A program made the translations under genes and the position numbers. The notes below the pieces were generated by a model, which worked only from the letters and a program-made list of their open reading frames with translations, did no database searches and was not told where the DNA came from. Below, one piece after another: positions 230-15,212 of a stretch of DNA of 18,948 nt. The first letter of the stretch is position 1, and every line of letters begins with the position of its first letter. The stretch is from NCBI GenBank assembly GCA_024404275.1, contig JAKSQG010000018.1, positions 1 through 18,948 on the forward strand, given 5' to 3'. Source of the DNA: Clostridia bacterium. GTDB lineage: Bacteria > Bacillota > Clostridia > Christensenellales > Aristaeellaceae.

Positions 230-2779
230 TTAAGGGGCGGCGGATTTTTGCCGCTTGGCAAAGGCGTATACGATCAGGTCGTCCTCCTTGCTGTAGCGGA
301 TGGAATAGGTGGAAAACTCCACGGGCTACGGGGTGTCCTGCAGCCGGAAAACAATGGTCAGCACCTCGTGATAGATGGCCTTGTTGTACGCCTCACGCAG
401 GCGGTCCTTGTCAAAGAAGTGCAAAAAAGCCTGCCGGTCTTCTTCTGCCGGGATGCGGTTCTTTGCTGTCTGCTGTACGCTGTAGTCCAGCGTGGTGGAG
501 GGCAGGTCGGGCTGATACAGGGTGTTTTCGCCCGTGACGTACTGGATGCGGTTGCGGTCCAGTTCAATGCACATGGTCACATCCGCCTGTCTGCGCAGCA
601 CGTCAAAAAAGTGCAGGGTCTGCTCCCGCTGCCCGGTAATGTCCTCCACCTGCCCAAAGAAGAGCTTGCGGTTTTCATCGCCGTGCAGAAAATAAAACTG
701 CATCCGGAACCAGAAAATGCTGTCGTCGGACTTGATGAAGCGGATCTCGCACCGTCCGCCCTCGGCGGTGTTCTGTTCGGCGTGCCGCAGCGCCCCGTAC
801 AGCGCGGGGTGATCCTGCGGCACCACAAAGTTCTGGATATTGACGATGCGGTGATCCATCTGCGTATCGCCGATGGCGCTGCGGAAGGGCCCGTTGAAGC
901 GGGTGATGGTGATGTTGTCGCCCTCCAGGGAATAGTACGCCACCGCTCCCAGAATACGGTTCAGCGTGCTTTCGGTAAACATGTTTTCCCGCAAAAATTC
1001 CTGTGCGCGGAAAAAATCAGAGGTCGTCTTTTCCAGCCCGCCGTGGTCGATGCGGCTGTCCTCCATGAGCAGCTGCTCAAACGCGCCGATGGGCATGGGC
1101 TTGTGGAAATAATACCCCTGGGCATAGCGGCAGCCCAGATTTTTCAAAAACCGCAGCTGCTCCTCATTTTCGACGCCCTCCACGATGACGGGCAGCCCCA
1201 GCATTTTGCTCATGCCGAAGATGGATTCCACAATGCTGATGCCCTTTTTGCCAAGGCGCGTGTCCTTTTTGATAAACAGCATGTCCAGCTTGATCAGGTC
1301 CACATTGATCTTGTCCAGCAGGTTCAGGGAGGAATACCCCGCCCCGAAATCGTCCAGATACACGGTAAAGCCGCGCTTTTTCAGCTTTGTGACGGCGGCG
1401 GAGATGGCGTCATAGTTTTCCGCGTAGGCAGATTCCGTGATCTCCACCTTGAGGCAGGCGGGGGCGATGCGGTGCTGCCGCGTCAGGGCGTCCAGATATT
1501 CCGCCACATCCATGGAAAGCAGGTCGATCTGCGATACGTTGATCGATACGGGCAGGGGATCAAAGCCGCGGTCCATCAGGCTGCGGATCCATTGGCAGGC
1601 CTGATCCCAGATGGATTTGTCCAGCTCCGTGATAAAGCCGTCTGCCTCCAGAAAGGGGATAAAGCTGCCGGGGGCCATGACGGTGCCGTCGCTGCGTACC
1701 CATCGGGCGAGCGCCTCGACGCCCACGATCTTTCCGTCGCCGATGCGGCATTGGGGCTGCAGGTAAAAGGTGATCTGCTTTTCCTGAATGGCTTTTTGCA
1801 GATCCGTCAGAAACTGAAAATTTTTCCGCGTCTTTTCATATCGGGTGGAGTCAAAATAGCGGACGCGGTCGGTATAGTTTTTCTTGGCCTCCTCCAGCGG
1901 GAAGTGGGCGTTGTCGTAGATCTGCAGCCCGGGGGTTTCACCTTCTTTGAGAACATAGACGCCCAATGCCGGCAAAAAGCCCACCACATTGGCGTGGGTA
2001 AAGATCAGGCTGCGGATCGAACGGTATATTTCTTCAATCTTGTTTTGGTCATGGCGGAGGAAAACGGCAAAGTTATCCCGCCCGAAGTAAGCCGCCACCG
2101 CCCCCTCCGTGTCTTCCAGCGAGGACAGATAACTGCCGATGCGCGATAAAAGGTAGTCGCTCTTTTCGTGCCCGAACCAGGCGTTGAACACCGTAAAATG
2201 CTGAATATCCACGGCAACACAGCACCATTTTCCGGTGCCGCTGCCCTGAGCAGCCTTTTTTGTGAGGGTGAGGAAAAAGTCCTCCGGGTTCCGAAGCCCG
2301 GTCAGGGGGTCGCGGTCCTTTTTGTACAGGGTGCTGTGGGTTCGTCCCTCCAGACGGTCCATCTGATTCTGGATGTCATAGATGTAAAAATAGATTTTTC
2401 CCTTGGGCACGCCGTGCTCCTCGCCGGTGATGCCGATGTAGCGCACCCAACGGTAGGAGCCGTCCACCAGCTTGTGGCGGAATTGCGCCCGCAGCAGGTT
2501 GTCTTCGGCTTGGGCAAAGCGCTCCGCCATGGTATCCGGGTCCATCAGCTCGTCATAATTCCGGTCGGCGGGATGGATCAGGTTTTTGCTGCAATAGGCA
2601 AACATGTCCCGGAAACCGCCCGACATCACGGGCACGAGGTATTTGTTTTCAATATGATAAAGATTCCGGATGAAATCATTCTCCGGCTCGATCTCAAATT
2701 TTTCGTCAAACGCCGTCTGATCGAAAAATCCGGCATTGATATTCTCTTTTCCATACAAAATCGGACAGAAGGCATCCAT
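230..2779 (-). CDS. PAS / degenerate GGDEF (GRDNF) / EAL / PAS-PAS signalling protein, a likely c-di-GMP phosphodiesterase. Contains an in-frame TAG at 326-328; under the standard code the gene ends at 326.
   Basis: The ATG at 2779 is preceded by AAGGAG 7 nt upstream. EAL-domain motifs are intact: VEALARW, SINVS, EITES, DDFGAGYSSL, KLD, EGVENEEQ, QGYYF. The GGDEF signature is degenerate (FGRDNFAVFL). PAS-like segments lie N-terminal and, unusually, C-terminal of EAL. After the TAG the frame stays open for 32 codons (PVEFSTYSIRYSKEDDLIVYAFAKRQKSAAP) to the TAA at 230-232, just ahead of a terminator. Confidence 0.85.
326..328 (-). other. In-frame TAG codon, either a candidate sense codon or the conventional stop of the EAL protein
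   Basis: Context is ...IVFRLQDTP-TAG-PVEFSTYSIRY... The last PAS-like fold appears to lack its final beta strands if translation stops here. The open extension alone is not statistically compelling. Confidence 0.5.
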
Positions 2780-2884
2780 ATGACCGCTCCTTGATGATCG
2801 CGTTTTGCAGTCGCGGTTTTCGGCAAAGGGCCGTCTTGCAGCTTCAAACGCAGTCTATGGTTCTGTATACATCTTCTCTTTTTA

Positions 2885-2913
2885 ACCATAGCACTTTTTT
2901 TACCGTCTTTCAA
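2885..2913 (-). promoter_or_regulatory. Candidate sigma-70 promoter of the EAL-protein gene
   Basis: Minus strand has TTGAAA (2913-2908), a 17-nt spacer, then the TG-extended -10 gTGcTATGGT (TATGGT = 2890-2885). It lies between the upstream terminator and the ATG at 2779. Confidence 0.5.
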
Positions 2914-2916
2914 GCC

Positions 2917-2953
2917 AAAAAACAAAAAAGAAGCGGCTTTTTTCAGCCGCTTC
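2917..2953 (-). terminator. Rho-independent terminator of the TIM-barrel isomerase gene
   Basis: Minus strand reads GAAGCGGC-tgaaaaaa-GCCGCTTC, a perfect 8-bp stem, followed by TTTTTTGTTTTTT. It starts 17 nt after the TGA stop at 2970-2972. Confidence 0.85.
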
Positions 2954-13323: not shown

Positions 13324-13347
13324 TTGATTCGGAAATGAGGTGCTCCT

Positions 13348-14385
13348 ATGATTCGTGTTGGCATTGCGGGCTGCGGCAAGATTGCCCAGGTCCGCCATCT
13401 GCCGGAATATCAGGCGAACCCGGATGCACAGATTTAGGGCCTGTTTGACCTCAACGCCGGGCGCGCGGCAGGGCTTGCGGCTCAGTACGGCGCAACGGCG
13501 TATGATACCTTTGAAAGCATGCTGGCCGATCCCATGATCGATGCCGTCAGCATCTGCACGGCCAATGCCGCGCACGCGCAGATGGCCATTGCCGCCCTGA
13601 AGGCGGGCAAGCATGTGCTTTGCGAAAAACCGATGGCCATCACGCTGGCCGACTGTGAGGAGATGGTACGTGTCGCAAAGGAATGCGGCAAGGTGCTGAT
13701 GATCGGTCAGAACCAGCGGCTGGCGGCGGCGCATCAGAAGGCGTATGAGCTGATCCGCAGCGGCGCTATTGGCAGGGTGATCACTTTTACCACCGCCTTC
13801 CGTCATGGCGGACCGGAGACCTGGAGCGTGGATTCCGGCAGCGGTACCTGGTTCTTTGACAAGACTCATGCCGCCTTTGGCGCCATGGCCGATCTGGGTG
13901 TGCACAAAACGGACCTGATCCAGTACCTGCTGGGGCAGACGGTGACCAAGGTGACCGCCTACCTCGGGTCGCTCGACAAGAAAACGCCGGATGGAAAGCC
14001 GATCTCGGTGGATGACAATGCCATCTGCATTTATCACATGAGCGGCGGTGCTGTGGGGACCATGACGGCCTCCTGGACCGATTACAGCGGCGAGGACAAC
14101 GCCACCGTGCTGTTTGGCACGGAGGGCGTGATGCGCATCTATGACGACCCCATGCACAGCATCGTGCTGAGCAAGCGTGACGGCACGACCGAATATTATG
14201 ACGTCGACCGGATTCAGACCAACGACAATCAGACCAGCTCGGGCATCATCGATCTGTTTGTGGCGCATCTGATCGATCCGACCAAGCCGTACATTTCCGC
14301 CGAGAGCGTGCTGCCGGCCATGCGTGCCGTGTTTGCAGCCGCCGAATCCGCCGAAACGGGCCGCATCGTGGCTACGAACGCGTGA
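13348..14385 (+). CDS. Gfo/Idh/MocA-family NAD(P)-dependent oxidoreductase (345 aa). Contains an in-frame TAG at 13435-13437.
   Basis: The ATG at 13348 has GAGG 7 nt upstream. The N-terminus MIRVGIAGCGKIAQVRHLPEY carries the Rossmann GxGxxG motif. After the TAG the same frame continues GLFDLNAGRAAGLAAQYG...VLCEKPMA into ORF 13519..14385. TGA stop. Confidence 0.88.
13435..13437 (+). other. In-frame TAG codon in Rossmann strand beta-2 (candidate sense codon)
   Basis: Context is NPDAQI-TAG-GLFDLN. The family pattern is p.aelvavcD, and this position is variable across the family. Confidence 0.8.
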
Positions 14386-14396
14386 GGAGAAGCACC

Positions 14397-15212
14397 ATGG
14401 ACAGAATCGTTGCAATGAATTCCAACAGCTATCATGGCTTTTCTATCGAGGAGGCCATTGAGGGCACTGCACGGGCGGGCTTCCGCTATATGGAATTGAC
14501 GGCCACCAAGGGGTGGACAGAGCATGTTTTCCCCGATCAGCCCCTGCGCCGTCTGCTGCGTGTGCGGGATATGCTTCGCGATCATGACCTGACCCCGTTT
14601 GCCATGAGCGGTCACACCAACCTGACCGACCCTGCCCGCAGCCGCGATTTTAGGGACAACATCCGTATGGCGCAGCTTTTCGGCTGCCGCTACATTGTTT
14701 CCTCCATCGGCGAGGCACACATCCGGGACGGGCATGAGGCCGATCTGGATGAAACGGTGCGCTGCATCGAAGCCTTTGTGCCCGAGTTGAAGGCGGCGGA
14801 TATGATGCTGGTGCTGGAAACGCACGGGAAGGATCACGGCACAGGCGTCCGTCTGGCTTAGATCGTGCGGAAGGTGAACAGCGATCGGGTCAAAGTGAAC
14901 TACGACACGGCCAACGTCGTGTTTTACGGCCGGGTCGACCCGGTGGAGGATCTCAAGGCCTGCGTGAACGATGTGGCATTTTTGCACATCAAGGACAAGG
15001 CTGGCGCTGCGGACGAGTGGAATTTCCCCGCCCCCGGCAAGGGTTATATTGATTTTGACGGCATCTTTGATGTGCTGAATCAAAACGGCAACAACAGCCC
15101 CTTCTCGGTCGAGATCGAGTTCACAGCGGCCGGTCCTTCCAACCTTGAAGAGGTGAATCAGGCGGTACGCGACAGCGCGGCGTTCTTCCGCGCTCACGGC
15201 ATCGCCCTGTAA
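14397..15212 (+). CDS. Sugar phosphate isomerase/epimerase (xylose-isomerase-like TIM barrel, 271 aa). Contains an in-frame TAG at 14859-14861.
   Basis: GAGGAG lies ahead of the ATG at 14397. ORFs 14382..14861 and 14865..15212 share a frame. The pattern LVLETHG ... TAG ... VNYDTANVVFYG ... FLHIKD ... SVEIEF places the barrel's conserved acidic and His residues on both sides of the TAG. TAA stop. Confidence 0.88.
14859..14861 (+). other. In-frame TAG codon in the middle of the TIM barrel (candidate sense codon)
   Basis: Context is HGTGVRLA-TAG-IVRKVNSDRVKVNYDTAN. Confidence 0.8.

Follow-up and report, generated by a model that had tools for sequence, protein, structure and literature searches.

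Is UAG still a stop codon in the bacterium that carries this locus or is it read as an amino acid and, in this case, as which one? The window, by which is meant the full 18.95-kb stretch of contig JAKSQG010000018.1 from a Clostridia bacterium (assembly GCA_024404275.1), contains seven in-frame TAG triplets distributed over five genes supported by homology, all of them at the positions given in the initial annotation. The conclusion drawn there was that an amino acid is inserted at TAG and that the interrupted genes are not pseudogenes. The recurrence of the TAGs, their alternation with glutamate codons and the ratio of non-synonymous to synonymous substitution rates (dN/dS) support this conclusion and sharpen it to glutamate. 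On these sequence comparisons, it is very probable that TAG is translated in the lineage of the window.

In-frame TAG codons of the window

For gene calling, TAG was read as a sense codon and, for the Pfam searches, it was masked as X. The comparison loci are designated by L-numbers, L001 being the syntenic locus of the sister species GCA_045599485.1 (about 92% nucleotide identity). The five interrupted genes and their TAGs are:

230-2779, minus strand: GGDEF-EAL-PAS signalling protein, 849 codons including one TAG, ends in TAA; Pfam EAL (1.3e-63), GGDEF and PAS_3
326-328, minus strand: in-frame TAG of this gene, 32 codons ahead of the TAA stop
4113-8366, plus strand: cell-surface protein, 1417 codons with two TAGs, ends in TGA; signal peptide, Cna_B and FctA, C-terminal membrane anchor
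6168-6170, plus strand: first in-frame TAG of this gene (codon 686)
8190-8192, plus strand: second in-frame TAG of this gene (codon 1360), within a Cna_B domain
10763-12241, plus strand: sugar ABC transporter ATPase, 492 codons with two TAGs, ends in TGA; two nucleotide-binding domains (Pfam ABC_tran, twice)
11363-11365, plus strand: TAG in the first ABC domain, at an invariant Glu four residues past the H-loop His
12125-12127, plus strand: TAG in the second ABC domain, at the equivalent invariant Glu
13348-14385, plus strand: Gfo/Idh/MocA oxidoreductase (Pfam), 345 codons with one TAG, ends in TGA
13435-13437, plus strand: in-frame TAG of the oxidoreductase, in a Rossmann-fold strand
14397-15212, plus strand: xylose isomerase-like TIM-barrel protein (Pfam), 271 codons with one TAG, ends in TAA
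14859-14861, plus strand: in-frame TAG of the TIM-barrel isomerase

According to the initial annotation, the conserved domain runs across the TAG in all cases except the signalling protein. This holds for five of these six sites: ABC_tran was matched twice across the TAGs of the ATPase, GFO_IDH_MocA (residues 2-120) and AP_endonuc_2 (24-266) across those of the oxidoreductase and of the isomerase, and Cna_B over 8190, but the TAG at 6168 is without Pfam coverage. After this TAG, 674 more codons are open in the same frame, and the same triplet is present in the independent assembly L021. The TAG at 326 lies C-terminal to the called PAS_3 stretch. At the G+C content of the window, TAA and TGA together amount, by our own estimate, to about 2.3% per random codon, and the probability that hundreds of codons stay open after a TAG by chance is below 1e-6. 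Full-length homologues of 492 residues exist for the ABC ATPase, the best one with 96% identity.

Neither an in-frame TAA or TGA nor a frameshift was detected in the 12 genes of the window, TAG is a rare codon (7 in 5750 codons) and no shared context was seen around the seven sites, all in agreement with the initial annotation. In the lineage as a whole, the interruptions are eight in-frame TAG sites (seven in the window and one in L001), with 0 TAA, 0 TGA and 0 frameshifts. The signature of genome decay, i.e. mixed stop types, frameshifts and relaxed selection, was not found at the locus, where TAG alone interrupts the genes.

The TAGs in independent assemblies

By exact-protein look-up, conspecific assemblies (98-99% nucleotide identity) were recovered; they stem from six further samples and from different assemblers:

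L017 (SRR14246009): TAG at 11363 confirmed
L018 (SRR21150928): TAG at 12125 confirmed
L019 (SRR28408121): TAG at 12125 confirmed
L020 (ERZ27247149): covers only 13435, which is TGG; no TAG
L021 (ERZ27247129; 98.2% identity): TAGs at 6168 and 8190 confirmed
L040 (SRR28408158): TAG at 14859 confirmed

The TAG at 14859 is also found at the same codon in L001 and is kept, in this way, across two species. In its GGDEF-EAL gene, L001 has a further in-frame TAG, not shared with the window, at the codon corresponding to window position 2105-2107. No same-species comparator was available for the TAG at 326 and the one at 13435 was seen only in this metagenome-assembled genome (MAG). As the TAGs recur in other samples and in a second MAG, an artefact of a single assembly is excluded.

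Codons found at the TAG positions in relatives

The codons aligned with the TAGs, in the same species and in relatives, are:

11363: TAG in the window and L017; GAG or GAA in L001, L002, L003, L004, L005 and L007
12125: TAG in the window, L018 and L019; GAA in L017 and L001; six relatives further away with GAG or GAA
14859: TAG in the window, L001 and L040; GAG in L005 and L006; GAT in L007
326: TAG in the window; GAG in L001
2105: TAG in L001; GAG in the window and L021
13435: TAG in the window only; TGG in L001, L018, L019 and L020; GCC, CAG and ACG in more distant relatives

At five of the six comparable sites (326, 2105, 11363, 12125 and 14859) TAG alternates with GAG or GAA; for 6168, the search for relatives with a sense codon at this position gave none. 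Under the null model of a single-base change from any precursor codon, an origin from Glu codons in five cases out of six has a p value of about 0.003, as estimated by us from codon counts. At 12125 the alternation is a polymorphism inside one species, the strain of L017 (97.9% identity) carrying GAA, which is two base changes away from TAG. Only with GAA, GAG and TAG as synonyms, drifting via GAG, would such a two-step difference be expected within a species. In the protein alignments, the columns of the ABC ATPase at 11363 and 12125 are each occupied by Glu in 120 of 120 homologues, and that of the TIM barrel at 14859 by Asp in 70 and Glu in 29 of 120 homologues. The column at 13435 is hypervariable (150 homologues: V 37, A 33, I 13 and, at the low end, E 1; T, R, K and Y also occur). 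This TAG, the one out of line with the Glu pattern, may stem from a very recent Trp-to-TAG transition, whether a replacement of Trp by Glu or a truly deleterious mutation, or from an error of the consensus, and the site is uninformative on the identity of the amino acid. An in-frame TAG which was apparent in L007 turned out to be a blastn alignment artefact and was discarded. From the aligned codons, UAG is probably translated as a rare glutamate codon in the species of the window and in at least the sister species GCA_045599485.1.

Selection downstream of the TAGs

The dN/dS values were calculated by the Nei-Gojobori method between the window and L001:

ABC ATPase, between its two TAGs: 0.14
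ABC ATPase, past the second TAG: 0.057
Gfo/Idh/MocA oxidoreductase, past its TAG: 0.125
TIM-barrel isomerase, 116 codons past the shared TAG: 0.039 (33 synonymous and 6 non-synonymous changes)
Uninterrupted genes, for comparison: 0.02-0.18

In the EAL gene, the 25 alignable codons past the TAG at 326 are conserved. Judged from these rates, purifying selection acts on the sequence following the TAGs as it does on the intact genes.

TAG as terminator and codon usage

The 13 gene ends counted in the initial annotation, 8 TGA and 5 TAA, were found again when the partial gene at the right edge was included. The absence of TAG among them was correctly noted (0/13), but as an argument it is statistically weak, the outgroups ending in TAG at only 3/59 genes. 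In L001 all 17 gene ends are likewise TAA or TGA. As the outgroups, with these three TAG stops in four loci, use TAG for about 5% of their stops, its absence from about 30 gene ends of the lineage is compatible with chance. Genuine TAG terminators, followed by non-coding spacers, are present in L005 (about 75% protein identity) and in L007 (about 61%; a Candidatus Limiplasma-like contig). Since outgroups still stop at TAG, only a narrow and young clade can have undergone the change. Within the 5750 codons of the window, the 7 TAG stand against 175 GAG and 173 GAA, i.e. about 2% of the Glu codons.

Search for a tRNA able to decode UAG

No tRNA was detected in the window and the related loci, and the Rfam search of the window yielded no family. 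The GTDB collection, with one genome per species, was scanned with the Glu-type tRNA(CUA) pattern CCCTCTAAMGG..GGTTCRADTCC, a Glu-type tRNA body being marked by the D-arm GGTCAAGCGGTTAAGAC and a four-base variable loop. Six matches were obtained, three of which are tRNA(CUA) according to ARAGORN (Deinococcaceae, Anaerolineae and Lachnoclostridium phytofermentans). The pattern is too narrow and would miss the phage tRNA described in the next section, with its anticodon stem GTG/CAC and T-loop GGCTCGAATCC. The match in L. phytofermentans KNHs2131 (L014; NZ_JPOF01000002.1), a cultured Lachnospiraceae, consists of two adjacent genes:

L014 4799-4870, minus strand: tRNA(CUA)
L014 4658-4730, minus strand: tRNA-Glu(CUC)

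The two tRNAs are identical save at anticodon position 36. By its sequence, the tRNA(CUA) is a natural Glu-type amber suppressor, generated by duplication and one point mutation. Since the two differ at one position, a one-step origin of a Glu-type tRNA(CUA) exists in Clostridia. No in-frame TAG was seen in the two large open reading frames (>800 codons) of the 8-kb stretch of L014.

The two other tRNA(CUA), both with a Glu-like anticodon arm, belong to a Deinococcaceae MAG (L011 2580-2651, minus strand) and an Anaerolineae MAG (L015 4380-4455, plus strand); their label "Pyl" in ARAGORN is due to the anticodon alone. When metagenomes were scanned with a D-arm-based tRNA(CUA) pattern, a phage tRNA(CUA), that of L031, was found and no chromosomal one. 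Further tRNA(CUA), with a Glu-type D-arm (L024 1242-1313 and L028 2236-2309, both from JGI metagenome Ga0326512; L027 1368-1439), are located on contigs of 34-36% G+C that carry 13-15 tRNAs in about 6 kb, including a normal tRNA-Glu(UUC), which is typical of large phages. Some phage suppressors presumed to insert Gln may have Glu-type bodies. Two more tRNA(CUA) (L029 3225-3297 in ERZ1034377 and L030 601-674 in ERZ1034375) are close to a neighbouring tRNA-Gln(CUG) and look eukaryote-like; they derive probably from ciliates in which TAG is Gln. They show that metagenome assemblies also hold contigs of this type, with which bins can become contaminated.

A phage with in-frame TAGs and its own tRNA(CUA)

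One metagenomic phage combines in-frame TAGs with a tRNA(CUA):

L031, L039 and L041: phage IMGVR_UViG_3300021400_001383, 36,371 bp, G+C 53%; ENA contig OCVV010999695.1
L031 9637-9708, minus strand (the same as L039 1477-1548, minus strand, and L041 8096-8167, plus strand): tRNA(CUA) of the phage

The D-arm and variable loop of this tRNA are the same as those of the Lachnoclostridium tRNA-Glu. The phage is siphovirus-like and temperate-looking, with a CI/Cro-like repressor pair. Its in-frame TAGs number at least eight and lie in the late genes for the small terminase, portal, Mu-F-like head-morphogenesis, capsid, connector and tail proteins and in an HNH gene. A related phage, L034 (SRR17889460), has three of the TAG sites in common and, at three others, TAG is exchanged with GAG or GAA. 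On the basis of these codon exchanges, the phage looks like a stop-codon-recoded one, in which TAG would stand for Glu and not for the usual Gln. In its early genes, TAGs situated close to the gene ends may still terminate translation, and the phage may be a code-switching one of the known kind, with Glu. The capsid TAG column, with K, T, E and E in four phages, is uninformative.

The terminase, tRNA and tetranucleotide comparisons gave no link between this phage and the lineage of the window. The homologues of its large terminase all lie on phage-sized contigs and none comes from the two MAGs; no tRNA was found in 39 other terminase relatives in IMG/VR. The tetranucleotide similarity of the phage to the window is moderate (r = 0.78), close to the value for distant Clostridia relatives.

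Weighing of the explanations

The loss of UAG as a stop, by loss of release factor 1 (RF1), is an evenly balanced proposition. The fuller reading, that of a new bacterial code in a free-living Clostridia lineage of the gut or rumen, in which UAG means Glu genome-wide by means of a dedicated tRNA-Glu(CUA), RF1 is lost and UAA and UGA are the sole stops, might equally be right or wrong. Several points weigh against reassignment to glutamate. The scan of GTDB representatives with the Glu-type tRNA(CUA) pattern gave no match from this lineage; either its tRNA differs from the scanned pattern or its contig is outside the collection. The missing TAG terminators are not significant, a weak point which leaves an ambiguous UAG, both stop and sense, possible. 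The share of TAG among the Glu codons also fits an inefficient and tolerated suppression. At 13435, finally, the nearest comparators (L001, L018, L019 and L020) have TGG and the column is almost never Glu. Some of these points are shared with partial amber suppression, in which RF1 would be intact, UAG ambiguous and an add-on tRNA-Glu(CUA), possibly borne by a prophage or another mobile element, would let GAG-to-TAG mutations be tolerated and drift. As far as the insertion of Glu is concerned, this is a sub-case of the glutamate reading, from which it differs only in that UAG is still a stop. The rarity of TAG, about 2% of the Glu codons, and the non-significant lack of TAG terminators are compatible with it; add-on tRNAs of the Glu type do exist, in a cultured Lachnoclostridium and in a temperate-looking metagenomic phage, and any change is recent since outgroups at about 75% protein identity still stop at TAG. 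On the other hand, with two TAGs in the ABC ATPase, the suppression efficiency would enter squared into the yield of full-length protein, one TAG persists at the same codon in two species at a synonymous divergence (dS) of about 0.2-0.6, TAG, GAA and GAG segregate within the species like synonymous variants and not one of about 30 gene ends in the lineage is TAG. Partial suppression, the serious rival, is regarded as rather unlikely.

A different residue at UAG is quite improbable. Glutamine, as in the code-15 phages, and pyrrolysine are documented prokaryotic meanings of UAG, and Firmicutes without GlnRS could amidate a Glu-charged tRNA to Gln; against these or another non-canonical residue, both ABC sites are Glu in every one of the 120 homologues, TAG is exchanged in the nearest relatives with GAA or GAG and never with CAG or AAG, and the host genes are sugar-catabolism and surface genes, not methylamine methyltransferases. 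Genome decay, with nonsense-inactivated pseudogenes, agrees with the splitting or loss of these genes under table-11 annotation, but it is hardly credible: all eight interruptions of the lineage are TAG, without TAA, TGA or frameshift, dN/dS past the TAGs matches that of intact genes, one TAG is common to two species and several to strains, and a Glu precursor is seen at five of six sites, where transitions should rather have acted on a mixture of CAG and TGG. The source being a MAG, and rumen and gut metagenomes holding ciliate-type tRNA-Gln(CUA) contigs and recoded phages, a base-calling error or a contamination by ciliate or recoded-phage DNA has also to be considered. Sequencing, assembly or binning artefacts of this kind are nevertheless extremely improbable in view of the recurrence of the TAGs in independently assembled samples (L017-L019, L021 and L040) and in a second MAG, the absence of a common sequence context at the sites, the typical bacterial operon of 57% G+C, syntenic with many Clostridia contigs, the use of TAA as a stop, unlike in ciliate codes, and an aligned residue which is Glu and not Gln. 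In the last alternative, the TAGs would be true stops and the downstream halves would be made separately by re-initiation. A GTG or ATG does follow soon after two of the TAGs (GTG at 11366 and at 14865), but the breaks fall inside single folded domains (ABC nucleotide-binding domain, Rossmann strand, TIM barrel and Cna_B), the next start codon after 6168 is 49 codons downstream and in conspecific strains the gene is unbroken, GAA standing in place of the TAG; there is very little chance that the genes are split.

If UAG is read as glutamate, which is the reading preferred here, the decoder would combine the anticodon CUA with the body of a tRNA-Glu and would be charged by GluRS. It would have arisen most easily by duplication of tRNA-Glu(CUC) and a single C36-to-A change, on the chromosome or on a prophage. 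New TAG codons would then arise from GAG through a G-to-T transversion, neutral or nearly so. Termination by RF1 at UAG would have been lost, or would be weak enough for a protein with two TAGs to be made, and UAA and UGA, read by release factor 2 (RF2), would end all the genes seen. A phage with TAG as Glu and its own tRNA(CUA) may have helped the change to arise or to spread.

Gene content of the locus and its annotation

With TAG as a sense codon, the window (G+C about 57%) contains 12 complete genes and the tail of a 13th. In addition to the five interrupted genes, it comprises:

2970-3890, minus strand: sugar-phosphate isomerase/epimerase (xylose isomerase-like TIM barrel), uninterrupted, ends in TGA
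2953-2930: terminator-like hairpin after this gene
8440-9423, plus strand: LacI-family regulator, uninterrupted, ends in TAA; exact protein match MCQ2453381.1 of MAG GCA_024500545.1
9643-10584, plus strand: sugar ABC transporter substrate-binding protein, uninterrupted, ends in TAA
12292-13323, plus strand: ABC transporter permease, uninterrupted, ends in TAA
15289-16257, plus strand: second Gfo/Idh/MocA oxidoreductase (Pfam), uninterrupted, ends in TGA
16334-18253, minus strand: S41-family peptidase (Pfam), uninterrupted, ends in TGA
18374-18754, minus strand: HIRAN-domain protein (Pfam), uninterrupted, ends in TGA
18740-18742: TGA stop of the partial gene at the right edge, counted as the 13th gene end

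The LacI regulator, the binding protein, the ABC ATPase, the permease, the oxidoreductase, the TIM-barrel isomerase and the second oxidoreductase form a sugar-utilisation operon (8440-16257), and the locus as a whole is a typical bacterial operon in synteny with many Clostridia contigs. The 4.3-kb surface-protein gene (window 4028-8382 against L001 7200-7259) is present in the window and in L021 and absent from the otherwise syntenic L001, where the genes for the S41 peptidase and the HIRAN protein are separated by an additional one for an SDF-family transporter (L001 17387-18718).

The initial annotation had predicted that standard annotation would turn the locus into a series of pseudogenes. 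This looks right from the numbering of the NCBI protein accessions, in which the ATPase is skipped: MCQ2453382 is the binding protein, MCQ2453383 is the permease and no number is left for the ABC ATPase between them. We infer from this numbering that the ATPase is without an NCBI protein record. Two accessions (79 and 80) lie between the isomerase and the LacI regulator, which fits a surface protein annotated as two fragments.

Relation to known systems and significance

To our knowledge, the cases in which UAG stands for a standard amino acid are phages (Gln), eukaryotes and synthetic E. coli. As in stop-to-sense changes in general, the in-frame stop is aligned here with one preferred residue and is shared among independent genomes. 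The likeliest molecular origin would be that of amber suppressors, such as those of laboratory sup strains and of L014, in which the anticodon of a duplicated tRNA has changed; unlike in the present lineage, conserved in-frame TAGs do not build up across species in the working genes of suppressor strains.

In the stop-recoded phages of code 15 (crAss-like and Lak), TAG has become Gln (PMC9523058). The likeness resides in an in-frame TAG serving as a sense codon in a prokaryotic system, with TAA and TGA remaining as stops. There the codon is read by a suppressor tRNA with a CUA anticodon, as would be the case here, but the recoded genome is that of a phage and the residue Gln, whereas the window is a bacterial chromosomal operon with aligned Glu. 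An archaeal code in which all TAG are read as Pyl has been described (bioRxiv 10.1101/2024.09.30.615893). Pyrrolysine decoding has in common with the present case that UAG is read as an amino acid in a cellular prokaryote and, as far as the gene ends counted here go, that TAG is rare or absent as a terminator; it requires pylTSBCD and is classically found in methylamine methyltransferases, in contrast to the conserved Glu of unrelated housekeeping genes observed here, the TAGs lying in an ABC ATPase, an oxidoreductase, an isomerase, an EAL protein and a surface protein.

The documented bacterial stop reassignments all affect UGA and RF2 (PMC8629427). The reassignments of UGA (Trp in table 4, Gly in table 25) resemble the present case in being stop-to-sense changes which lead to fragmented genes under table-11 annotation. 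They involve a cognate tRNA and the loss of one release factor; here the codon is UAG, hence the factor would be RF1, and the genome, as far as the contig shows, is neither reduced nor AT-rich (57% G+C). In peritrich ciliates and in Blastocrithidia nonstop (PMC12153298), UAR has been reassigned to Glu. These eukaryotic codes give UAG the meaning that is probable in the lineage, acquired there by a tRNA-Glu with a mutated anticodon. They are nuclear (tables 30 and 31) and UAA is reassigned as well, whereas TAA ends 5 of the 13 genes in the window and never occurs in frame. Two surveys of 2026 (10.64898/2026.04.02.715157 and 10.64898/2026.05.24.727570) report only UGA and sense-codon cases and no bacterial TAG reassignment. 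No description of a bacterial UAG-to-Glu code was found in the searched literature, the coverage of which is incomplete, so that an earlier description is possible.

If confirmed, this would be the first reassignment of UAG to a canonical amino acid in a bacterial chromosome, with a new code table, and termination by RF1 would prove to be something that natural lineages can do without or modify. As table-11 pipelines fragment or drop the genes concerned, the MAG quality scores, pangenomes and protein databases of the clade seem to be distorted. The lineage could also supply a natural, orthogonal-like system for the decoding of UAG. The change looks young and is polymorphic, with TAG, GAA and GAG within one species, and may offer, through intermediate stages of codon capture, a rare view of a reassignment in progress among living relatives.

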